Part shown: piece by piece, positions 8,993-35,159 of the stretch
Position numbering within the stretch: the first letter of the stretch is position 1
Layout: the number at the start of each line of letters is the position of its first letter
NCBI GenBank assembly: GCA_003009755.1
Contig: PXUB01000038.1
Location: 8,946-72,945 of the forward strand
Reading direction: 5' to 3'
Length of the DNA stretch: 64,000 nucleotides
DNA from: Thermoplasmatales archaeon SW_10_69_26
Lineage (GTDB): Archaea > Thermoplasmatota > SW-10-69-26
Made by a program: the position numbers and the translations under genes
Notes under the pieces: generated by a model
The model's database searches: none
Told to the model about the DNA's origin: nothing
Seen by the model: the letters and a program-made list of their open reading frames with translations, nothing else

Positions 8993-9113
8993 CAGGTCAC
9001 CCTCCAACCCCCTCGCCCTTAAATCGTCCGACAGGGCCGGGCTCGACAGCTCACCGCTCTTGCCACCGCAGCCTTCACCAAGCAAGCCGGGCTCGGGTCG
9101 ACGGAGCACGAGC

Positions 9114-10031
9114 GTGGCGATCGAGATCGACGGCCTGGCGAAGGCCTACGGCCGCCAGCGCGCCCTCGACGGGATCGACCTCGAGATCCCGACGGGCGCC
9201 ACGTGCGGCCTGCTGGGCCCCCAAGGCGCCGGCAAGACGACCCTAGCCCGCTTGCTGGCCGGCCTCGAAGTCCCCACAGCCGGGAGCGCCCGCATCGACG
9301 GGCACCCGATCGGAGAGCCCCAGGCCACCGCGCGCCTCGGCTACATCCCCCATCCAGCCGGCTTCGACGAGGGCCGAACCCCCCGCCAGATGCTCCGCCT
9401 GGCCGGCCGCCTGCACGGGATCCCCACCAGCCGACGAGAGCGCCGCCTCGAGCGCCTGCTCATCGACCTCGGCCTGGAACACCTCGGCGGCCACGCGATC
9501 GAGCACCTCGACGGAGGCCACCGACGACGACTGGCACTCGCGCACGCGCTCGTGCCCGACCCCGACCATCTCGTCGTCGACGAACCCACGCGCGGCCTCG
9601 GCCCCGCCGCCAGTCGCCGCATGCGTGAGGCCTTGATCGAGAAGACGCGCGAGCGCACGCTGCTCGTCCTCACATCCATCCCCGACGATGTCGAGGCCCC
9701 GTGCGAGCGCGTCGTCGGGATCGAGGACGGCACCATCGTGCTCGACGCCGGCGTCCACGAACTCGCCGCCGACCACGGCGTCGCCATCGCGATCGGCCTC
9801 GCCGGCGAGCTCCCCCAACGAGCCCTCGACGAGCTGCGCGAACACGAGGCCGTGGCCGCCCTCCGACGCGACCCGACCGACGCCGACCTCGAGCTGTGGC
9901 TTACCGACCCCGACGAAGCCCCGGCCGTCCTCCGCCTGCTCGTCGAGGCCGACGCACCCGTCGCCTCCTTCGACCGCCAGCCCCCACCGCTGGGCGCCAC
10001 CGTCGCCGAACACATGGAGGGCCAGCTGTGA
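9114..10031 (+). CDS. ABC-2 type ATP-binding protein (degenerate motifs)
   Basis: Walker A GPQGAGKT, signature LDGGH, Walker B LVVDEP, no His in the H-loop (VLTSIP). Confidence 0.88.
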   Translation: MAIEIDGLAKAYGRQRALDGIDLEIPTGATCGLLGPQGAGKTTLARLLAGLEVPTAGSARIDGHPIGEPQATARLGYIPHPAGFDEGRTPRQMLRLAGRLHGIPTSRRERRLERLLIDLGLEHLGGHAIEHLDGGHRRRLALAHALVPDPDHLVVDEPTRGLGPAASRRMREALIEKTRERTLLVLTSIPDDVEAPCERVVGIEDGTIVLDAGVHELAADHGVAIAIGLAGELPQRALDELREHEAVAALRRDPTDADLELWLTDPDEAPAVLRLLVEADAPVASFDRQPPPLGATVAEHMEGQL

Positions 10032-11143
10032 TCCCCTCCCTCACCCAGCTCGTCGAGGAGCTGGACGCCGGGCTCGAACGAGAGGATCCCGAGCTCGTCT
10101 CCGAGACCGCCCGAACCCTGCGGGAGACGATCGCGAGGGCCCTCGGCGACCGCCGCCTGCAGGCCGAGGACCCGATCCTCGCCCGACGTCGCCGCCTGCA
10201 CCAGCGCCTCGAAGTGTTGGAAGCCAAGGCTCAGGCCGGCCGCTTCGACGACGCCGACGACGACCTCGACGCCGTCCGCGAGATGGCCCACGAGACCGAA
10301 CGCGCCCTCGAGCAACGCCCTGCCGCCGACACCGAACCCGAACCCGATCCCGGACCCGGCCCCGACGCCAGCCTCCACCTGGCCCGCCGCGAAGCTCGCG
10401 CCACGGTGACGAGCCTCCCCGGCGCCGTCGTCGGGACCCTCAGCCTCCTCGTCTTCACGCTCGCCCTCCAAGCCAGCCTCGACGCTGCCCCGCGGACGCT
10501 GGCCGCCGTCTGGGCCAACGCCCGGACGCCGGCCCTCGCCCTGGCTCCCCTGGCCGGTCTCCTCGTCGGGATCGAGGGCCTCGCCGACGCCCGCGCCGGC
10601 CGCATCTGGCTTTCGGCCACCTCCGGGCTCTCGCGGACCCGGATCGTCGTGGCCGAAGCCCTCGGGGCGCTGGCCGCGCTTGCGGCTCTGCTGTTGGGGC
10701 CCGCCGTACTGGTGATCCTCGTCGGCCTGGGCCTGGGCTTGGCTCCCGACCCGACGACCACCGCGCCCGTCCTCGGGGGCCTGTTCCTGCTGGCGACCAG
10801 CTTCACGGCGATCGCCTTCGCGTTCGCGGCCCGCCCGTCCTCGCGCTCGGTCACGTTGGCCGGCACCCTCGCCAGCTACCTCTGCCTTGGACCGGTCTGG
10901 GAGGCCGCCTTCGCCGCCGGCCAGGCCGCCGGCCGCGGGCGGGGGGCGCTGGTCGCCTCCCTGCTGCGCGGGCTCTCCCCGGTGAGGGCCGCCGACGCCC
11001 TCCTCTCTTCCGTCGACCCCTACGCTCTCCCGGCTGGTCGAGGCCTTCTCGTCCTCGCGGGCTGGACCGTGGCCGGCCTCGCGTTGGCCGCCTACCTCGT
11101 GCAGGAGCGAGGGTTCGGGCGGCCTCACCACGGCGAGCCGTAA
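10028..11143 (+). CDS. ABC-2 type permease with extra N-terminal helical domain
   Basis: GTGA overlap with the ATPase; acidic helical N-terminus then about 6 TM helices with an EAA-like GLSRTRIVVAEALG segment. Confidence 0.8.
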   Translation: MIPSLTQLVEELDAGLEREDPELVSETARTLRETIARALGDRRLQAEDPILARRRRLHQRLEVLEAKAQAGRFDDADDDLDAVREMAHETERALEQRPAADTEPEPDPGPGPDASLHLARREARATVTSLPGAVVGTLSLLVFTLALQASLDAAPRTLAAVWANARTPALALAPLAGLLVGIEGLADARAGRIWLSATSGLSRTRIVVAEALGALAALAALLLGPAVLVILVGLGLGLAPDPTTTAPVLGGLFLLATSFTAIAFAFAARPSSRSVTLAGTLASYLCLGPVWEAAFAAGQAAGRGRGALVASLLRGLSPVRAADALLSSVDPYALPAGRGLLVLAGWTVAGLALAAYLVQERGFGRPHHGEP

Positions 11144-11174
11144 CTAGGACCCACAAGGTACAACAACCTGGGTC

Positions 11175-11192
11175 GTTTAGGGGTGCCTAAAC
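11175..11192. promoter_or_regulatory. DtxR/SirR/Idr-type metal-repressor operator (box 1)
   Basis: Perfect palindrome GTTTAGG-GGTG-CCTAAAC, 28 nt upstream of ATG 11221. Confidence 0.7.
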
Positions 11193-11220
11193 CCGGCGCG
11201 AATCCCGCGCAGGTGTTCCC

Positions 11221-13433
11221 ATGAGAGGCTCCCGACTCGCCACGATCGTGCTCGCGCTCGCCGTCACGACCGCCCCCACATCGTCACCGCCATGGGGGAG
11301 GACCGACCCGAGGACGCCGAGGCCACCTACCAACAGGCCTTCGCCCAGCACGGCGAGACCCTGCCCACGGTCGCGGACACCGTCGAGACCGCACTCGAGG
11401 ACGCCCGCCAAGCCGAGCCCGGCTCCGCGGAGTACGCCGCCGCCTCGCAAACGGCCAAGAAGGGCGTGCTCGCCCTCAGCTACCACGCCGCGCACCGATT
11501 CGCCGACGACGACAACCGCGACGAGGTCGAAGCCTACATCGAGGTCCTCACCACCAAGTTCGACGGCGAAGAGCAACTGACCGAGACGAAGACCGCCGTC
11601 ACCGACGACACGACCCCGCTCGACGAAGCGATGGCCACGCTCGACGCCGAGTACCGCGACCTCGTCACCGCCAAGGTCTACGCCGAGACCCAGGAAACCC
11701 CCGAGCTGCTCACCGCCGGCGAGACCACGACGGCCGCCAAGGAAGCCGGCGAGGCGCTCGGCTACGCGCTCAGCCTCCACGCAGGCGACCAGAGCCCACC
11801 CGAGAAGCTGTACGAGGAGCTCGACGGTCTCGTCGAGCACACGCTCGCCCAGGAGGAGGATGCCACCCGCGGCGAAGCCGACGAGATCCTCGCCCTGCTC
11901 GCCGACCACGCCCTCCAGACGACCCCCACCGAGAAGACCCAGGCCCGCCAAGCCTACCTGGCCGCCCTCGACGGGGGCGACATCGACCGAGCCGAGACGA
12001 TCTACGAGGGCAACTTCTCCGAACACGCCTCCGAGTACGCCCCCGAGGCCCACGACCGCATCAACCAAGCCCTCACCGACATCCGCCAAGCCGACGGCGC
12101 CAACCGCACCGTCCAGCACGAGATCCTCGCCAAGTCGCTGCTCGACGTCGCCTGGTCGGTCGGCTTCACCGAGCTCGCCGAGGACGAGATCCACGAAGGG
12201 CTGGGTTACCTGGCGATCCTCGTCGAGACGTTCGACGACCCCACCGACCCCGACGAATTGGGCATGGCACTGGGTCATGTCGCCGCCAGCCAGTCCACCG
12301 ACAACCCCCACCTGTCCACCGTCCGCGACACCGCCAGCGCCCACTTCCTCGACAAGGTCCACGAGGAGATCGACGAGGTCTTCATCAACTGGAACGACAC
12401 CGAGACCGCGCGCGAGAAAGCCATCGAAGGCGTCCTCTACTACCAGCCGATCCGCGAGGAGGTCGCCCACACGCTCTCCGACGAGGACGCCGACCACCTC
12501 GCCGACGAGCTCCGCGGCCTCTACAACGCCACGACCGCCGGCGACCGCGAGGAAGCCGAACACGAAGCCGAGGAAGCCCGCGACCTGCTCGCCTCCTACG
12601 AGAACGCGGGCGAGGACGTCACCGAGATCGATACCGTCCTCACCGACATCGAGCGCAGCCTCTCGATCATCACCGTCGAGATCGAGGAGTACGTCGACTA
12701 CAAGGCGGAGGGCAACGACGAGAAGGCCAACGAAGAGGTCGAGGAATCCAAGGCCTTCATCGGGCAAGCCATCGCCACCTTCGAGGACAACCGCCAGACG
12801 CTCGCGGCCGCCGACGCGCAAGCCGCCGACGAGCTCGAGGCCGACATGACCGAGATCCAAGATCGCCTCGAGGCCGAGGAGGACATCCCCTCCATCCCCG
12901 ACGTCGTCGAGCGCGCCATCGACCGCCTCGACGCCTTCGAAACCGACCAACCCGAAGGCCCTGCCGTCGACGTCGAGATCGGCGATCCCGTGAAGGAAGC
13001 GGAGACCGTCCGCGTGCCCATCCGCCTAGCCGACCCGCCGGAGGGCGGCTACAGCGTGCAAGCCACGATCACCTACGACGCCGAGCGGATCACCGTCGAC
13101 AGCGTCGAGATCCCGGCCGAGGTCGGCGCCGAGACGAGCTCGCCCGGCGAGATCCGCTTCAACGCCGCCGAGACCGAGACCCCGGCCGACCCCGTGATCG
13201 CCCAACTGCACCTCGCCCCCGCCGATCCCGATGCCCCGCCCGAGCTCTCGGTCGACGTCGAGACGCTCACGGACGGCCAAGGCGACCCCCTGGCTCTCGG
13301 CAACGTGACCGGCCAACAGCTCGACCTCGCCAGCGTCGGCGACGCGGGACCCACCAGCAACGTCCCGCTGGGTCCCGGCGCCCTCGTCGCCTCCATCGCC
13401 TCCGCGCTCGCGCTCGCCCGCCGACGACCCTGA
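11221..13433 (+). CDS. Secreted, membrane-anchored helical-bundle protein with C-terminal cohesin-like domain (frameshift at C-run 11273-11277)
   Basis: Signal peptide is in the 11221 frame and the main ORF is 11292-13433; one extra C joins them. Cohesin pattern TVRVPIRL...SVQATITYDAERITV...GEIRF...LTDGQG at about 12960-13313; C-terminal VPLGPG-TM-RRRP. Confidence 0.8.
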
Positions 13434-13444
13434 CCCCGACCCGC

Positions 13445-14332
13445 ATGTCGCTTGCCCGCGCCGCCGTCGGCCCGCTGCTCGCCTTCACCCTGGTAGCCGT
13501 GGCCTTCCCGGTCGGCAGCCAGGCGAGCGACGATCTCCGGGTGCCCCAGAGCCTCGCCGAACCCGCCGAGGACCTCCGCGATGGCCTCACCCAGGTCGCC
13601 GACGCCGACACGATCGACGAGGCCCGCCAGGCCCACGACGACGCCGTCCGAGGGCCGGCCGACCAACTGCTGCCCTACGCCAACGACCTCGCCGACCGCT
13701 CGGGGGACCTGCTGGCGACCTACCTCGATCGCCTGGACGAGCAGCTGGCGACCGGCAACCTCTCCGATGCCCGCTCGCTGGCCAGCGCCGGCGCCCAGCT
13801 CGTCGCCGACGACGTCCAACCCGTCGCCGAGCGCTGGGACCGCAACCGCACCGCGCTCGCCGCCGGCCCCGTCCAAGCGACGGACGAGGGCCCCGCCGTG
13901 GCGCTCGTCCTCGTCAACCCGCCGCCGGGGTCGATCGCCGCCGTCGACGCCAGCCTCACCCTCGAGGCGGCCACCCCGCGGTCCGCGAGCCTCGCGCTCG
14001 GTCAAGGCGAGACCACCGTCGACCCCGCCAACGGGACCGTGCGCTGGGCCAGCTTCGACGCCTCCGCGGCCGCCAGCTTGGCCACCGACGGCGCCCAACC
14101 CGTCGCGCTGGGCGAGGCCCGCATCGATCCCACCGGGGACACGATCGCAACGAACGTCACCGTGCACGATCTGCTCGACGCCGACGGCCAGTCCACGCCC
14201 GCGATCGGGCTCGCCAGTGACCGCGAGGTCCCCACCGACGGGACCGGCCTCCCCACGACCTGGCTAGCGCTGGGCGGGGTCGCGCTCGGCGCCGTCGGGC
14301 TCGGCTTGTGGGTCCAGAGGTGGGAACCCTGA
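13445..14332 (+). CDS. Secreted, membrane-anchored protein: helical domain plus divergent cohesin-like domain
   Basis: Signal peptide, acidic helical N-half, beta-rich VALVLVNPPPGSIAAVDASL...NGTVRWAS...LLDADG segment, C-terminal TM. Confidence 0.7.
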   Translation: MSLARAAVGPLLAFTLVAVAFPVGSQASDDLRVPQSLAEPAEDLRDGLTQVADADTIDEARQAHDDAVRGPADQLLPYANDLADRSGDLLATYLDRLDEQLATGNLSDARSLASAGAQLVADDVQPVAERWDRNRTALAAGPVQATDEGPAVALVLVNPPPGSIAAVDASLTLEAATPRSASLALGQGETTVDPANGTVRWASFDASAAASLATDGAQPVALGEARIDPTGDTIATNVTVHDLLDADGQSTPAIGLASDREVPTDGTGLPTTWLALGGVALGAVGLGLWVQRWEP

Positions 14333-15249
14333 GCGCCCCCATCGAAGCCCGCAACCTCACGAAACGCTACGACGACCTCGACGCCATCCGCGGCCTCTCC
14401 CTGAGCGCCGACGAAGGCCAGGTCCTCGGCCTCCTGGGCCCCAACGGGGCCGGAAAGTCGACCACGATCAAGGTGCTCGTCGGCCTCGTCCACCCCACCG
14501 AGGGCGAGGCCTGGATCGGCGGCCACCACGTCCAAGACGAGGGCATCCAGGCCCGCCGCCAGCTGGGCTACCTCCCCGAGGTCGTGGGCCTGTACGAACA
14601 ACTCACCGCCGAGGCATATCTGCGCTACATCGCCCGTTTCCACGGCACCAGCGGCCCCCGCGCCACCCACCGCATCGAGGCCCTGTTGGCCGACGTCCGC
14701 CTGACCCAAGCCGCGGACCGACCGATCGGCACCTTCTCCAAGGGTATGCGTCAACGCCTGGCGCTGGCCGGCGCCCTCTTCCACGATCCCCCCGTCCTCG
14801 TCCTCGACGAGCCGCTCACCGGGCTCGACCCGGAGGGCATCGTCAAGATGAAGCAGGCGATCGAGCAACTCGGCCGCCAGCGCACCGTGCTCGTCTCCTC
14901 CCACGAGCTCCACGCCGTGGAGTCGCTTTGCGACCGTGCGATCATCCTCCGCGACGGCGAGGAGCTCACCTCGGCGCCCGTCGCCGAGCTCACCCGACGC
15001 GATCCCCCTCGCTACACCCTCACCACGGCCGACCCCTTGCCCGAGCCTCGAGCCTTGACCGACGTCGACGGCGTCCGATCGATCCACGCCTCCTCCCAGA
15101 GCACGCTGCAGGTCGAGGTCACCGACGCCGACGCCGCCTCCCTCCTCGTGGACCACCTCGTCCGCGGGGGCCACCGCGTCCGGCACCTCGAACGCGACGA
15201 ACGCACCCTCGAGGAAGCCTTCGTCGACATCACGGGGGTCCGCGCGTGA
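14320..15249 (+). CDS. ABC-2 type ATP-binding protein (canonical)
   Basis: GPNGAGKS, FSKGMRQR, LVLDEP, SSH motifs. Confidence 0.92.
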   Translation: MGTLSAPIEARNLTKRYDDLDAIRGLSLSADEGQVLGLLGPNGAGKSTTIKVLVGLVHPTEGEAWIGGHHVQDEGIQARRQLGYLPEVVGLYEQLTAEAYLRYIARFHGTSGPRATHRIEALLADVRLTQAADRPIGTFSKGMRQRLALAGALFHDPPVLVLDEPLTGLDPEGIVKMKQAIEQLGRQRTVLVSSHELHAVESLCDRAIILRDGEELTSAPVAELTRRDPPRYTLTTADPLPEPRALTDVDGVRSIHASSQSTLQVEVTDADAASLLVDHLVRGGHRVRHLERDERTLEEAFVDITGVRA

Positions 15250-16445
15250 GCGATCCCTGGACCGACCTCGAGCAAGCCCTCGCCGGGGACGACCCCGCCC
15301 AGGTCCACCGCACGACCGACCGCATCCGCGACGCCGTGCGCGGGGCCTTCGAGGGCCGCCAGCTCGTCCGCGGCTCCCTGCTCGTCGAACGCCGCCGCCG
15401 GCTCGAGCACACCCTCGCCGAGCTCGACGACGCGGTCGCCGGCGACCGGATCGACGAAGCCCGCGAGCGAGCCGAGCAGGTCCGCGAGCTGGCCCCCGCC
15501 CTCGTCGACCAAGCCCGCCAGCTCGACCCGATCGACGCCGAGGAGGAGGTCTCGACCGGCGGCTGGTTGGCCAACGCCGGGACCGTCGCCCGCAAGGAAG
15601 CCGTGCTCGGCATCCAGGGAACGCGCGGGCTGTTGCTGTTCGGCATCCTGGGGCTCACGTTCGGCATCGGCCTGCGGTCGGCGATCGGCGGCTCCACGGC
15701 CACCGGCGGCCAAGCCAGCGTCAAGCTCGTGTGGAACTACGCCCACAGCCTCGCCTTCCTCGCCCTCCCGCTGGCCGGCCTCCTCGCCGGGCACGGGCTC
15801 GTCAACGAGGAACGCCGCTCGGACACGATCCACATCCTCGCCGCCCAACCCGTGGGCCGGATCGGGATCGTCCTCGGCAAGTGGCTGGGCATGGCCGCCA
15901 CCCTGGGCTTGGCCGTCGCCGCCAGCGCGGGGCTCGTCGGCACCGCCGCTTACGCCGTGACCGGGACGCTGGGCCCCCCGAGCGCCGCGGTCACCTACCC
16001 GCTGGCCTGCTTCGGGCTCGCCTTGGCCTTCGGCTCGATCGCGCTGCTGGCCAGCACCTTGCTCGAGCGCACCGGTCCCACCCTCGCCGTCGGGCTGGCC
16101 AGCTTCGTCCTGCTCGGCCCGGTCTGGCAGAACGCCTTCCTCACCCGCTCGCTGGAGCAGGCCGGCACGATCCCCGATCCGGGCTCCGTGCTCGTCTACC
16201 TCGCCACCCCGTTCACCGCCTGGTGGAACTGGACCAGCGAGCTGTTGGGTCCCGTGAACGACGCCACCGGGCTCCCCCAGGGCGAACCCTGGCACGCCGC
16301 GCTGGTCAACGCCGTCGAGACCGGGGCCCTCGAGGCGCTCCCGTTCTACGCGACCCAACCCTACTACGCGATCGTGATCGCCGCCTGGATCGCCGTCTGC
16401 CTCGGCCTCGCCGCCGCCGTCTTCCGCCGCCAGGATCTGGCCTGA
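15246..16445 (+). CDS. ABC-2 type permease with extra N-terminal helical domain
   Basis: GTGA overlap; VARKE, EERRSDTIHIL...PVGR.GIVLGKW (NosY/ABC2-like), multiple TM helices. Confidence 0.85.
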   Translation: MSDPWTDLEQALAGDDPAQVHRTTDRIRDAVRGAFEGRQLVRGSLLVERRRRLEHTLAELDDAVAGDRIDEARERAEQVRELAPALVDQARQLDPIDAEEEVSTGGWLANAGTVARKEAVLGIQGTRGLLLFGILGLTFGIGLRSAIGGSTATGGQASVKLVWNYAHSLAFLALPLAGLLAGHGLVNEERRSDTIHILAAQPVGRIGIVLGKWLGMAATLGLAVAASAGLVGTAAYAVTGTLGPPSAAVTYPLACFGLALAFGSIALLASTLLERTGPTLAVGLASFVLLGPVWQNAFLTRSLEQAGTIPDPGSVLVYLATPFTAWWNWTSELLGPVNDATGLPQGEPWHAALVNAVETGALEALPFYATQPYYAIVIAAWIAVCLGLAAAVFRRQDLA

Positions 16446-16492
16446 CCCGTGCGAAGATGAAACGGGACCGCAAAGGTACTAATGCCGGGCCT

Positions 16493-16510
16493 GTCTAGGC
16501 AGCCCTAAAT
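16493..16510. promoter_or_regulatory. DtxR-type operator (box 2), overlapping the start codon
   Basis: GTCTAGG-CAGC-CCTAAAT; one mismatch to the TTTAGG-N4-CCTAAA core of box 1; same upstream AAGGTAC element. Confidence 0.6.
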
Positions 16511-17483
16511 GGTGCCCGACGCCCCGCTGCCGACCCTGCTGCTCGCCGCGCTCGTCCTGACACCCAGCATCCCGGGCGCCCTCGGCCAGGACACCCTGTC
16601 CACCGAGGAGCTCGAGACCCGGCTCGACGAGCTGCAACGACGAAGCCAGCAAGCCGTCGACCGCTACGAGGCCGGCGACCGGGACCAGGCCCTCGACCAC
16701 GCCCGCCACGTCCGCGAGGCCTTCACCTTCGCGGAGGGCAACGCCTCCGTGCTCGAACGCACGATCAACGACGTCAGCGCGGTCACCATCGGTGAACAGG
16801 TCAAGGCTCAAGCCTCCCGCCTGGCCAGCGCCATCGACGCCGGCGACCCCGTCGAGGAGGTCCAACAGTCGCAGACCGAGCTGGAACCCCTGCTCAACCG
16901 GCTCGTGCTGGTCTCGAAAGGCGAGCACGCGCCCGCGAGCCAACGCCAACTCACCACCGAGGAATCCATCCACGAGGCCGCCCAGGAGGTCCGCGACCTC
17001 GTCGACGAGGCCGTCACCCTCTACACCGAAGACCAACCCGAGGCGGCGCAGAAGAGCGCCGAGGACGCCTTCTTCGCGTTCGAGCAGAACGGGCTCGGCC
17101 CCGACACGACCGTCGTCGACGAAGGGCTCGAGAACGAGGTCGAACACGACATCAAGAACTTCCAGGGGGAGGCCGGCGAGCCCGGCCTGGCCGACCTGAT
17201 CGAGCACGGCGCCCCCGTCGGGGAGGTCGAGGACCAGGCCCAGACGGTCCACGACGGCCTCGACCAGATCGTCACCCTGCTCGAGGCCACCAAGCCGCCC
17301 AGCGACCTCGGCGACGCCAACCAGGACGGCGACGTCACCATCGTCGATGCCCTCCTCACCGCGCAAGCCTCGCTGGGCATCCAGGCCGAGGACCCCACCA
17401 TGGACGCCAACCAAGACGACGCCGTCACGATCGTCGACGCCCTGCTGATCTCGCAAGCCGCCCTCGGCATCCGGGATCTGTGA
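16509..17483 (+). CDS. Secreted helical protein with C-terminal dockerin (type I-like) domain
   Basis: Signal peptide; duplicated Ca-loop/helix repeats GDANQDGDVTIVDALLTAQASLG and DANQDDAVTIVDALLISQAALG (about 17307-17469); AFFAFEQNG resembles the N-domain of the adjacent FTR1. Confidence 0.88.
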   Translation: MVPDAPLPTLLLAALVLTPSIPGALGQDTLSTEELETRLDELQRRSQQAVDRYEAGDRDQALDHARHVREAFTFAEGNASVLERTINDVSAVTIGEQVKAQASRLASAIDAGDPVEEVQQSQTELEPLLNRLVLVSKGEHAPASQRQLTTEESIHEAAQEVRDLVDEAVTLYTEDQPEAAQKSAEDAFFAFEQNGLGPDTTVVDEGLENEVEHDIKNFQGEAGEPGLADLIEHGAPVGEVEDQAQTVHDGLDQIVTLLEATKPPSDLGDANQDGDVTIVDALLTAQASLGIQAEDPTMDANQDDAVTIVDALLISQAALGIRDL

Positions 17484-17487
17484 AACC

Positions 17488-18873
17488 GTGACGACGACCC
17501 CGACCTGCGCCACACCGAGCCGCTCGACGAGCCCCAGCGCTTCGACCGGGCTCGTCCTCCTCGCCCTCGCGCTGGTCGGGACGAGCCTGGCCCCGACGGC
17601 CACCGCCGCCGGCGACGCGTCCCTCCCCGACCAACTCGACACCTTCCGCGCCCAGATCGAGACCGCCGTCGCCGACTACGAGGCCGCCTACGCCAACTAC
17701 ACGGAGGCCACAAGCGACGAGGAGCGCCAGCAGGCCCGCCAGGCCATGCACGAGGCCGGCCGCGCGGTCGGATCCGCCTTCCTCGCCTTCGAGCAAGGCC
17801 ACGGCGACGACGGCTCCCTGTCCGTGTTCATGCAGACCCAGATGGACCAGGGCTTCTACCGCTCCTTCGAGCAGGACGTCGTCCTGCTGCGAGCCACGAT
17901 GACGGACGCCGACACCGGCGAGGTCCCCACGCCCGCCGAGGTCGATGCCAAGACCTCGCCGGTGTTCCAGTCGCTGGACCGAGCCGAGGGCTGCTTGCCC
18001 GAGGGATGCGGGTCCGCCTGGACCGGCGCCGCCGCCCAGTCCTTCCTCGTGCTCCTGCGCGAGGGCTTCGAGGCGGTGCTGTTGGTGGGCGCCATCGTCG
18101 GTTACCTCCACAAGAGCCAACGCTCGGAGAAGGTGGCCAACGTGTTGAGCGGCGTCGGCGCCGCGCTGGTCGCCACGATCGCGACCTGGGTCCTCTTCGA
18201 CCGGTTGTTCGCCGCGGCCGCCCGCAGCTCGTTCGCCCAGGCCACGCTCGAGGCCGCCACGATGCTGTTGGCGTCCGCGATCCTCTTCTACGTCGGGTTC
18301 TGGCTGCTGTCGAAGACCGAGTCCGACCGCTGGCGAGCCTTCATCGACGGCAAGCTCGAGGATTCCCTGGCCGACGACCGCGGCTGGATGCTCGCCCTCG
18401 TCGGGTTCCTGGCCGTGTTCCGCGAGGGCGTCGAGACCGTCGTGTTCGTGCAAGCGATCTCGCTCGGCAGCGGCGGCGCCTGGGGGGAGATCGGGCTCGG
18501 CCTCGGGCTCGGGGTCCTCGCCCTCGCCGGGTTGTACTACGCGTTCCAACGAGCCAGCGTCTCCGTCCCGCTGCGGACGTTCTTCGGCGTCACCAGCGGC
18601 ATCCTGTGCCTGCTGTCCCTGCGCTTCCTCGGGTTGGGCGTCTTCGAGCTGCAAGAGGCCGGCCTGCTGGGCGCTACCCCGCTCGACGCCGTCGGTGCCG
18701 TCCTCGCCCAGAACGCGCTGCTTGGAACCCTGGCCGGCGCCCTCCTGGGCTTCTCGCCGACGCTCGAGGTCGCCATCGCTCAAGCGTTGCTGGCCGCCGT
18801 CATCCTCGCCGGCGTCGTGTGGACCTTCCTCGTCCGGCCCGCCCGAGCCACAGCCCCCGCCGCCGGCGGGTGA
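17488..18873 (+). CDS. FTR1/EfeU family high-affinity iron permease with extracellular N-terminal domain
   Basis: Two REGxE motifs (LLREGFE, VFREGVE), 7 TM helices, ELQEAG motif, signal peptide plus AFLAFEQG helical domain. Confidence 0.93.
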   Translation: MTTTPTCATPSRSTSPSASTGLVLLALALVGTSLAPTATAAGDASLPDQLDTFRAQIETAVADYEAAYANYTEATSDEERQQARQAMHEAGRAVGSAFLAFEQGHGDDGSLSVFMQTQMDQGFYRSFEQDVVLLRATMTDADTGEVPTPAEVDAKTSPVFQSLDRAEGCLPEGCGSAWTGAAAQSFLVLLREGFEAVLLVGAIVGYLHKSQRSEKVANVLSGVGAALVATIATWVLFDRLFAAAARSSFAQATLEAATMLLASAILFYVGFWLLSKTESDRWRAFIDGKLEDSLADDRGWMLALVGFLAVFREGVETVVFVQAISLGSGGAWGEIGLGLGLGVLALAGLYYAFQRASVSVPLRTFFGVTSGILCLLSLRFLGLGVFELQEAGLLGATPLDAVGAVLAQNALLGTLAGALLGFSPTLEVAIAQALLAAVILAGVVWTFLVRPARATAPAAGG

Positions 18874-34145: not shown

Positions 34146-35159
34146 GTGCGCGTCACCCACGCGGTGATCGTCGGCCTCCTGCTCGTCAGCGCGGGCTGTC
34201 TGACCGGCGCCGACGAGACGGCCGAGGAGCCCGAGGACGGGAGCCTCGATGCTCGGGCCGACCCGAACACCGAGACCGACGCCACCTCCCGCGCCCCGGA
34301 ACCGGGCCCCCTCGAGGCCCCGCCCAGCTGGATCCCCGGCGAGTACTGGACGATCGAGATCGACAGCACCCTGCTCGACGAACCGATCACCTGGACGCGC
34401 GTCGTCGCCGGCTACAGCTCGGACACCTACCTGCTTGGCCAACCCGCCGAGGAGGCCACGCCGGCCGGCCTCCTGTTGCACGTGCCCGGCCTGGGCCCCG
34501 TCGACCAGGGCAACCTCTCCTACGGCGTGCACGGAGACGCCTTCCAGCCGACGGCGTTCCCGCTCGAGGAGGGCCAAGCCTGGCAGACGTCGTTCGAGGG
34601 CGACCCCGTGAACGCGACCGTGACCCGCGCCGGCGACGTCGCCGAGATCGCGTTCTGCTGCTCGCGGAACATCACCGCCACCTACGACCCCAGCGTGCGC
34701 GCGATCAGCTCGCTGTCCGTCGACGACGGCTTCCTCGCCTACGAGGTCACCGACCACGGCTACGCCTACGAGGGTGACATCGAGGTCCCCACCGAGCGCG
34801 AGGTCGTGTTCCTCCAGGGACGCGCGGCCGGCGCCCTCACGACCGACGGCTCGGCTGGCCCCCCGGCCGGGCAGGCCCAGGTCCCCGAGGCTGTGGACCG
34901 GGTCGCTTTCACGCAGATCGTCGGCAACCTCGACATGACACCCGCCGAGGAGATCGGCGCCTACCTCGAACGGGCCCAACTGCCGAACGGCTCCACCTAC
35001 ACCACCCAGCGATCGGCCAGAACCGACGGCCTGGCCATCAGCTTCCACGAGGCCGCCAACGCCTCCGGCACGTGGACCTTCGACCACGTCGCCGGCGGTC
35101 CCGGCCTGGCCTTCACCGAGGGCATCGGCTACCAGCTCGAGACGCGCACCCTCGGGTGA
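34146..35159 (+). CDS. Acidic lipoprotein of unknown function
   Basis: Lipobox SAGC, beta-rich mature domain. Confidence 0.75.
   Translation: MRVTHAVIVGLLLVSAGCLTGADETAEEPEDGSLDARADPNTETDATSRAPEPGPLEAPPSWIPGEYWTIEIDSTLLDEPITWTRVVAGYSSDTYLLGQPAEEATPAGLLLHVPGLGPVDQGNLSYGVHGDAFQPTAFPLEEGQAWQTSFEGDPVNATVTRAGDVAEIAFCCSRNITATYDPSVRAISSLSVDDGFLAYEVTDHGYAYEGDIEVPTEREVVFLQGRAAGALTTDGSAGPPAGQAQVPEAVDRVAFTQIVGNLDMTPAEEIGAYLERAQLPNGSTYTTQRSARTDGLAISFHEAANASGTWTFDHVAGGPGLAFTEGIGYQLETRTLG

Follow-up and report, generated by a model that had tools for sequence, protein, structure and literature searches.

Two adjacent operons of the salt-adapted Thermoplasmatales archaeon SW_10_69_26, one headed by a cohesin gene and the other encoding a dockerin protein and an FTR1-family iron permease, appear to be switched by one metal sensor. 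They lie in a 64,000-nt stretch of contig PXUB01000038.1 (the window, to which positions refer unless a contig or locus is named). The promoter of each operon carries a 16-bp palindrome related to TTTAGG-N4-CCTAAA (box 1 and box 2, Table 1). Both palindromes very probably serve as operators at which a DtxR-family metal sensor resembling archaeal TroR binds. Because the boxes match the DtxR/TroR binding site, the cohesin operon and the dockerin-FTR1 operon are probably induced together when iron is scarce. This kind of operator is known; what is new here is the lineage in which it occurs and the genes that it precedes. We observed directly the sequence, rarity, position and conservation of the boxes and the presence of DtxR homologues in the genome.

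Two palindromes with matching promoter positions

The two 18-mers that the initial annotation had described were recovered with the same sequence and coordinates. Box 1 is located in the 77-nt gap between the stop codon of an upstream permease gene (11143) and the ATG at 11221. Box 2 spans positions -15 to +1 of the dockerin gene, and its final A is the A of the ATG (16509-16511), which bears out the overlap with the start codon that had been claimed. Each palindrome is preceded by the heptamer AAGGTAC (11155-11161 and 16473-16479). The distance had been given as 19-20 nt; measured from the start of the heptamer to the start of the 18-mer it is exactly 20 nt both times, leaving a 13-nt gap. 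The core pattern TAGG-N4-CCTA occurs twice in the window, solely in the two boxes, compared with 0.07 expected occurrences, and two occurrences were reached in 1 of 100 shuffles. The flanks of the boxes contain no additional TTAGG or CCTAA.

Outside the heptamer and the palindrome, the two promoters are identical at 16 of 41 positions (random mean 11.8, P = 0.13). The likeness is thus limited to the functional elements, and a recent duplication of the promoter, which we considered as its source, is unsupported.

The boxes occupy a repression position in archaeal promoters

The 2.82-Mb assembly (49 contigs, 69% G+C) encodes a TATA-binding protein (TBP), and sigma-70 region 2 was not found in it. 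The proteins of the locus are strongly acidic (isoelectric point near 4), and near-identical DNA is present in sequencing runs labelled halite metagenome. These features, and relatives that belong to the Thermoplasmatota, mark the genome as archaeal, and AAGGTAC is therefore best described in terms of TBP and transcription factor B (TFB), as part of a promoter composed of a TFB recognition element (BRE) and a TATA box. The proposal that both halves of the locus share one promoter layout therefore stands for the heptamer and its spacing, with the correction that the heptamer belongs to the archaeal BRE/TATA element itself.

We profiled base composition upstream of 305 open reading frames (ORFs) with an unambiguous ATG. 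The A+T fraction climbs from a background of ~0.30 to a maximum of 0.52 at -28, with a peak from -36 to -25; A is enriched at -35/-34, and a smaller increase is seen at -12 to -10. Across the whole genome, C or G is favoured at -2/-1 of unambiguous ATG starts. This profile is the signature of leaderless archaeal genes, and many genes appear leaderless. In the strongest leaderless promoters of the genome, a T/A-rich box comes after AAGG or AAAG, and the element of the cohesin operon resembles these promoters. Judging from where its promoter element falls, the dockerin gene is probably leaderless.

Archaeal repressors usually have their operator downstream of the TATA box and ahead of the transcription start. 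Both boxes are found between the TATA element and the predicted start, directly at box 2 and by way of the identical spacing at box 1. The predicted leader of the cohesin operon is 30 nt long and contains a small hairpin followed by a Shine-Dalgarno (SD)-like AGGTG before the ATG at 11221. At the equivalent place, the orthologous leader in the relative G003 (L033) has a differently spelled hairpin, GTACGCG-ACC-CGCGTAC, and the orthologue in the relative G010 has the same SD-ATG arrangement.

Boxes are rare in the genome and found mainly at iron genes

The genome (2,816,557 bases in 49 contigs) was scanned with two patterns and a weight matrix. The pattern [CT]TAGG-N4-CCTA[AG] has three genomic sites, and TTTAGG-N4-CCTAAA with up to two mismatches has eight. 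The matrix was built from relatives alone (26 sites from 16 of 22 loci), with no site of this genome included, and it returned six matches of at least 12 bits in 2.8 Mb. The four best were box 1, a site at a second FTR1 gene, a site at a ferritin gene and box 2 (Table 1). A box was thus present at both FTR1 loci of the genome (2/2). Elsewhere in the window, no score exceeded 6.3 bits. The initial annotation had proposed such a scan as a check on its reading, and the sites proved to be rare and nearly confined to iron genes, not randomly scattered.

The second FTR1 gene and its orthologues have the sequence TATATC, then 9-10 nt, and then the box. At the ferritin gene, the box precedes the best TATA-like element (TTTTGTAG) by 11 nt, a position that would fit activation under plentiful iron by analogy with TroR at dpsA. 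On the strength of these sites, the regulator of the two operons probably also controls the second FTR1 gene (C22) and the ferritin gene (C25).

The box is conserved at FTR1 loci of relatives

FTR1 homologues were present in 17 of the 41 genomes searched, this genome included. Boxes with at most two mismatches were found upstream at 16 of the 22 FTR1 loci of relatives. Together, these loci contain 26 sites in 112,139 bases, compared with 0.45 +/- 0.61 (maximum 3) in 100 dinucleotide shuffles, and all 26 sites are upstream of the FTR1 match or no more than 27 nt from its start. At 11 loci, the box and the beginning of the FTR1 domain are no more than ~110 nt apart; at three, the box is 700-1300 nt upstream, and at two it heads a contiguous cohesin-dockerin-FTR1 operon. 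Six loci have no box, and one of these (L027) offers only 39 nt upstream of the match.

Among the species-representative genomes, orthologous cohesin-dockerin-FTR1 loci were identified in G003, G010 and G011, which are metagenome-assembled genomes (MAGs) of uncultured Thermoplasmatales or Thermoplasmatota; no further ones were found there and none among metagenome contigs. Boxes are present at two of the three (G003 and G011, not G010). In G003, one box is followed by the gene for a 295-aa protein, an ATP-binding cassette (ABC) ATPase gene and a permease gene, and then come two boxes and the cohesin, dockerin and FTR1 genes. The cohesin-dockerin-FTR1 operon of G011 has three boxes at its head. 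The window differs from these relatives in that the 295-aa/ABC module is situated between the cohesin and dockerin genes, with a box for each half. The genes that form a single boxed operon in relatives are therefore split into two boxed halves in the window, which provides independent support for one regulon.

The boxes resemble TroR and one-dimer IdeR operators

We compared the boxes to operators of characterized DtxR-family regulators. TroR, a DtxR-family iron regulator of Haloferax volcanii, is reported to have the motif TTTAGGC-NNN-CCTAAAANAN in chromatin immunoprecipitation sequencing (ChIP-seq); it represses iron-uptake genes and is required for dpsA expression, and mutating both copies of the motif in a reporter abolished iron repression (PMC10783522). 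A single IdeR dimer is reported to bind the 14-bp site TTAGGNNNNCCTAA, which has the form TTAGG-N4-CCTAA (PMC8464063). Box 1 agrees with TTTAGG-N4-CCTAAA at 12 of 12 specified positions and box 2 at 11 of 12. Compared with the actinobacterial one-dimer IdeR/DtxR site, the agreement is 10/10 for box 1 and 9/10 for box 2, and the geometry of one dimer per 14-16 bp is shared as well. The original assignment of the palindromes to DtxR-type regulators is thus upheld by both the TroR ChIP-seq motif and the one-dimer site.

Among known cases, archaeal TroR comes closest, and further features link the boxes to the TroR system as reported for Hfx. volcanii. TTTAGG(C)-N3/4-CCTAAA is common to TroR sites and the boxes described here. 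Uptake genes are repressed and iron storage is activated in that organism, through dpsA, and the same would hold here for ferritin. Hfx. volcanii has tandem boxes at a distance of ~30 bp, and such tandems recur in G003, G011 and other relatives. The two systems differ in lineage (Halobacteria there, Thermoplasmatota MAGs here) and in targets, with siderophore genes there and genes for FTR1, cohesin and dockerin proteins and ABC-2 transporters here. The words "FTR1" and "permease" do not occur in the main text of PMC10783522.

The classical bacterial operator, as described, is a different structure: it is 19 bp long, has four CCTAA repeats and takes up two dimers, so that a sigma-70 promoter is occluded, whereas the boxes in the window are single 16-bp elements in a TBP/TFB promoter. 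With two half-sites and an even-length 16-bp palindrome, they do not represent the classical 19-bp two-dimer DtxR/IdeR box (TTAGGTTAGSCTAACCTAA).

An archaeal precedent may be MDR1 from Archaeoglobus fulgidus, which Bell et al. are said to have described in 1999. MDR1 is reportedly a DtxR-family repressor with operators at or downstream of the transcription start, where it blocks recruitment of RNA polymerase and not binding of TBP and TFB. Its own operon, for an ABC metal transporter, is said to be its target and to have several operators. The mechanism that we propose below would be of the same kind. A comparative genomic study of archaeal DtxR regulons, reportedly by Leyn and Rodionov in 2015, may already list related motifs.

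Two DtxR homologues are candidate regulators

The initial annotation had called for a DtxR homologue, and the genome encodes two of them outside the window, on contigs C15 and C24, both above Pfam cut-offs. The C15 protein is short (a frame of at most 182 aa) and has the N and C domains without an SH3 domain, like TroR and Idr. The C24 protein is long (231 aa) and has a FeoA/SH3 domain, like SirR. In Hfx. volcanii, TroR lacks the SH3 domain and SirR has it. The relatives of both homologues carry generic names only, and it is in its missing SH3 domain that the short form resembles TroR/Idr. Orthologues of the short form were found in G002 and G011. Neither DtxR gene has a box nearby (best scores -0.4 and 4.6 bits), which fits the constitutive expression reported for troR in Hfx. 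volcanii (PMC10783522).

A different palindrome, TTTAG-N6-CTAAT, is found just upstream of the SirR-like gene in four of four cases examined (C24:5170-5185, which is L040, and L046, L047 and L048), adjoining a TATA-like TTAA or TTTAAA. It is possibly the autoregulatory operator of the SirR-like gene. That these genes have a palindrome of their own is a hint that the short paralogue is the one which reads the TTTAGG-N4-CCTAAA boxes. Next after the C24 SirR-like gene comes a gene for a multicopper oxidase (L040:3272-4471), whose product is a possible ferroxidase partner for FTR1.

A model for iron-responsive control of the locus

We propose a model in which each 16-bp box (TTTAG-G-N4-C-CTAAA) would be bound by one dimer directly 3' of the BRE/TATA element AAGG-TAC(T/A)A and reaching the start. 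With enough Fe2+, the metal-loaded dimer would occupy the box and deny RNA polymerase access to the promoter. Under iron scarcity, the dimer would leave and both operons would be transcribed together. The first would then yield the cohesin protein, the 295-aa protein and an ABC-2 transporter, and the second the dockerin protein and the FTR1 permease. Four parts of this scheme are predictions: that the sensor binds, which metal it senses, in which direction it acts and where transcription starts.

The claim that the two operons form one Fe/Mn-repressed regulon is supported, with a correction on the metal. The motif, its specificity, the two DtxR homologues and the operon in relatives all speak for a single regulon; as for the metal, the targets favour iron over manganese.

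The role of archaeal cohesin-dockerin pairs outside cellulosomes has been described as unclear (PMC9012536). We tentatively suggest that the products of the locus could form an assembly on the archaeal surface that is induced by iron starvation. A secreted helical dockerin protein might dock on a membrane-anchored cohesin beside FTR1 and the ABC-2 transporter, where it would capture iron or hand it over. One DtxR-type regulator would repress uptake at the start site and activate ferritin from upstream of the TATA box, and the pairing of box and regulator would be conserved from Halobacteria to Thermoplasmatota. If this proposal is true, it would give the first physiological role for an archaeal cohesin-dockerin pair. 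The boxes also attach a testable label, iron limitation, to products that so far lack an assigned function, namely the cohesin, dockerin, 295-aa and ABC-2 products encoded next to FTR1. They extend the TroR-type box, experimentally defined in a haloarchaeon, to uncultured Thermoplasmatota, in the classical position for archaeal repression.

Dockerins of anaerobic methanotrophic archaea (ANME) offer a partial parallel, since archaeal dockerins are attached there to components that take up metals or solutes, for example TroA-type binding proteins (PMC9012536). No regulatory element or FTR1 link is described for them in the sections of PMC9012536 that deal with these proteins, and the carrier of the dockerin in the window is, unlike those of ANME, a helical protein of no known family. 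A literature search for work tying archaeal cohesin or dockerin to an FTR1 permease found none; in the one co-mention, "Ftr1" is a methanogenesis enzyme.

Evidence against the model and alternative explanations

Several observations weigh against control of both operons by a TroR-type iron sensor. G010 has the same gene set as G003, yet there is no box at either of its FTR1 loci (L034 and L031); its cohesin promoter (L034, G010:C7, 13520-13600) has a strong TTTTTATAA TATA element and no box, and iron control may have been lost in G010. Box 2 has a C in place of a nearly invariant T (TCTAGG), and its score is only 16.4 bits. The TroR motif is reported ~100 nt upstream of start codons in Hfx. 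volcanii, compared with -15 to +1 here. Two of the three ferritin-family genes lack a box, and neither of the two Peripla_BP_2 genes has one of the six matches; the match nearest to the Peripla_BP_2 gene on C22 (C22:27256) is ~8 kb away. The distribution of regulators is uneven as well. With our query, the short DtxR form was found neither in G003 (78% complete), which has boxes and yielded only the long form, nor in G010 (89% complete), which has no boxes and likewise yielded only the long form. In G036, boxes are present and the one DtxR homologue lies in a long open frame (228 aa). The heptamer AAGGTAC is not significant by itself (two occurrences in the window, 1.14 expected, with 29 of 100 shuffles reaching two; 32 in the genome on both strands), and its weight derives from the fixed spacing to the palindrome and the promoter position, not from rarity. 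Finally, the genome encodes a Fur-family homologue on C47.

The regulators of G003 and G036 also bear on an alternative that we regard as unlikely but worth keeping in view, namely that operators of the same kind are bound by the long SirR-like paralogue (C24), possibly in response to manganese or several metals instead of iron alone. G003 has boxes, with only the long form found in it, and the 96%-complete G036 has boxes at FTR1 with one DtxR homologue. Short and long clades have almost the same recognition-helix segment (P-A-S-A-[TS]-[ED]-M-x-Q-[KR]-L), and for both paralogues the best NCBIfam model is that of MntR, far under its cut-off. However, the targets, FTR1 permeases and ferritin, are iron genes. 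The reported Hfx. volcanii regulator with this motif is TroR, which lacks the SH3 domain found in SirR. The separate palindrome at all four SirR-like genes suggests a separate specificity, and G010, in which only the long form was found, has no boxes. We therefore continue to favour a TroR-type sensor of iron, with the short paralogue as the likelier candidate.

Reading of the boxes by another regulator, whether the Fur-family protein, ArsR or another winged helix-turn-helix factor, seems highly improbable. Besides the Fur homologue on C47, an ArsR mutation that accompanies the troR deletion in Hfx. volcanii (PMC10783522) would speak for it. Against this, the box is a DtxR-family site in both archaea and bacteria. 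The Fur-family gene (C47:34117-34446) is immediately upstream of a ferritin/Dps-like gene (34670-35083) and has no TroR-type box; together they look like a PerR-type pair, which fits a local role. A classical Fur box is A/T-rich, unlike TTTAGG-N4-CCTAAA. We consider it still less probable that the palindromes work at the RNA level as hairpins, whether these terminate or process transcripts of the ABC operons upstream or structure a leader. Each palindrome does follow an ABC-2 permease stop codon by 32-50 nt, and its arms could pair over 6-7 bp around a 4-nt loop. Neither is followed by a run of T, however, and a search of 10900-17600 gave no Rfam match at E values up to 1. It is the letters of the half-sites that are conserved and not their pairing (among 24 arm pairs departing from the consensus, only 3 are still complementary), and the box also precedes FTR1 genes with other neighbours.

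That the palindromes are chance occurrences, or the functionless relic of a copied promoter, is barely credible. The abundance of the heptamer would allow chance for that element alone. For the palindromes, the two observed copies stand against 0.07 expected in the window, the four best matches in the genome are all at iron genes, and the loci of relatives are more than 50-fold enriched over shuffles; a copied promoter is contradicted by the absence of significant likeness outside the elements. An operator for a DtxR-family sensor of the TroR type thus accounts best for both boxes.

Genes of the locus and further observations

The features of the locus and the genomic matches are collected in Table 1.

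Table 1. Features of the two operons and matches of the box elsewhere in the genome. Positions are those of the window unless a contig is given.
Feature	Position	Strand	Remarks
ABC ATPase	9060-10031	as cohesin operon	upstream pair, part 1
ABC-2-like permease	10028-11143	as cohesin operon	upstream pair, part 2; directly 5' of box 1
BRE/TATA-like element, operon 1 (AAGGTACAACAA)	11155..11166	+	heptamer and 13-nt gap as at box 2; predicted role
Putative operator 1 (box 1), TTTAGG-GGTG-CCTAAA	11176..11191	.	18-mer GTTTAGG-GGTG-CCTAAAC at 11175-11192; match 1, cohesin operon, 24.1 bits, best in genome
Predicted transcription start, operon 1	11191 (within ~2 nt)	+	placed at first A of AAGG + 36, spacing as at box 2
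Leader hairpin GCGCG-AATCC-CGCGC	11196..11210	+	folding -13 kcal/mol, z = -1.97; weak evidence
SD-like AGGTG	11211-11215	+	directly after leader hairpin
Cohesin-domain surface protein gene	11221..13433	+	Pfam Cohesin E = 7.8e-4, 20.1 bits (below 24.1 cut-off)
295-aa secreted, membrane-anchored protein	13445..14332	+	no Pfam or NCBIfam match
ABC transporter ATPase	14308..15249	+	Pfam ABC_tran, E = 7.5e-32
ABC-2 type permease	15246..16445	+	Pfam ABC2_membrane_2, E = 3.9e-25; GTG start overlaps ATPase stop (GTGA)
BRE/TATA element, operon 2 (AAGGTACTAATG)	16473..16484	+	-36 to -25 from ATG, on genome-wide A+T peak
Putative operator 2 (box 2), TCTAGG-CAGC-CCTAAA	16494..16509	.	18-mer GTCTAGG-CAGC-CCTAAAT at 16493-16510; match 4, dockerin-FTR1, 16.4 bits
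Secreted helical protein, C-terminal dockerin	16509..17483	+	Pfam Dockerin_1 22.7 bits (cut-off 22.9)
FTR1/EfeU-family iron permease	17488..18873	+	Pfam FTR1 E = 2.6e-23; NCBIfam EfeU/Ftr1
Genome match 2	C22:27256		21.3 bits; ~30 nt upstream of 759-aa FTR1 protein gene
Genome match 3	C25:110485		19.8 bits; 52 nt upstream of 166-aa ferritin gene
Genome matches 5 and 6			14.5 and 12.4 bits; weak, without clear target gene

The cohesin protein has orthologues in G003, G010 and G011 that are 30-41% identical and all have an in-frame signal peptide. In the window, the ORF with the signal peptide (11221-11580) is out of frame with the 713-aa main ORF (11292-13433), and the frame changes at or near a run of C at 11273-11277. 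Contigs of sequencing run X1 end and begin exactly at 11277/11278, and the frameshift may therefore be an assembly artefact or strain heterogeneity. The C-termini of the cohesin proteins (window 13380-13433; L034, L035) have Pro-Gly(-Phe), a hydrophobic helix and an Arg-rich tail, most clearly in G010, an arrangement resembling an anchor of the PGF-CTERM archaeosortase type. The ABC pair at 9060-11143 is a second, distantly related one and has no box; read-through from it into the cohesin gene is possible. Orthologues of the 295-aa protein head the ABC operon in G003 and G010.

The dockerin has duplicated D-x-N-x-D-G calcium-loop segments that are kept in four of four orthologues. Three orthologues are 44-56% identical. 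An AlphaFold2 model of the whole protein (mean confidence score, pLDDT, 70.4) gave no Foldseek match in the PDB at E values up to 0.001, with EfeM and imelysin appearing only at E ~0.9. A predicted complex of cohesin residues 552-690, dockerin residues 258-324 and two Ca scored 0.20 relative to a mark of 0.32, a result that counts neither for nor against an interaction. The FTR1 permease has an N-terminal helical extension of ~180 aa.

The second FTR1 protein (L038, C22, 2919-7225, minus strand) is a 759-aa fusion of N-terminal FTR1 with ~490 residues of no family, and its gene is followed by a 675-aa ORF without a Pfam match. This long type of FTR1 protein (~773 aa) recurs in G001, G002, G003, G005 and G010. 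Promoters of FTR1 genes of the 759-aa type (L021, L026, L028, L029) have an inverted repeat, GGACC-N5-11-G(G)TCC, just 5' of the BRE, and the copy in this genome (L026) is imperfect. This repeat may be a second regulatory site. A single GGACC is located at the corresponding spot in both window promoters (11146-11150 and 16464-16468).

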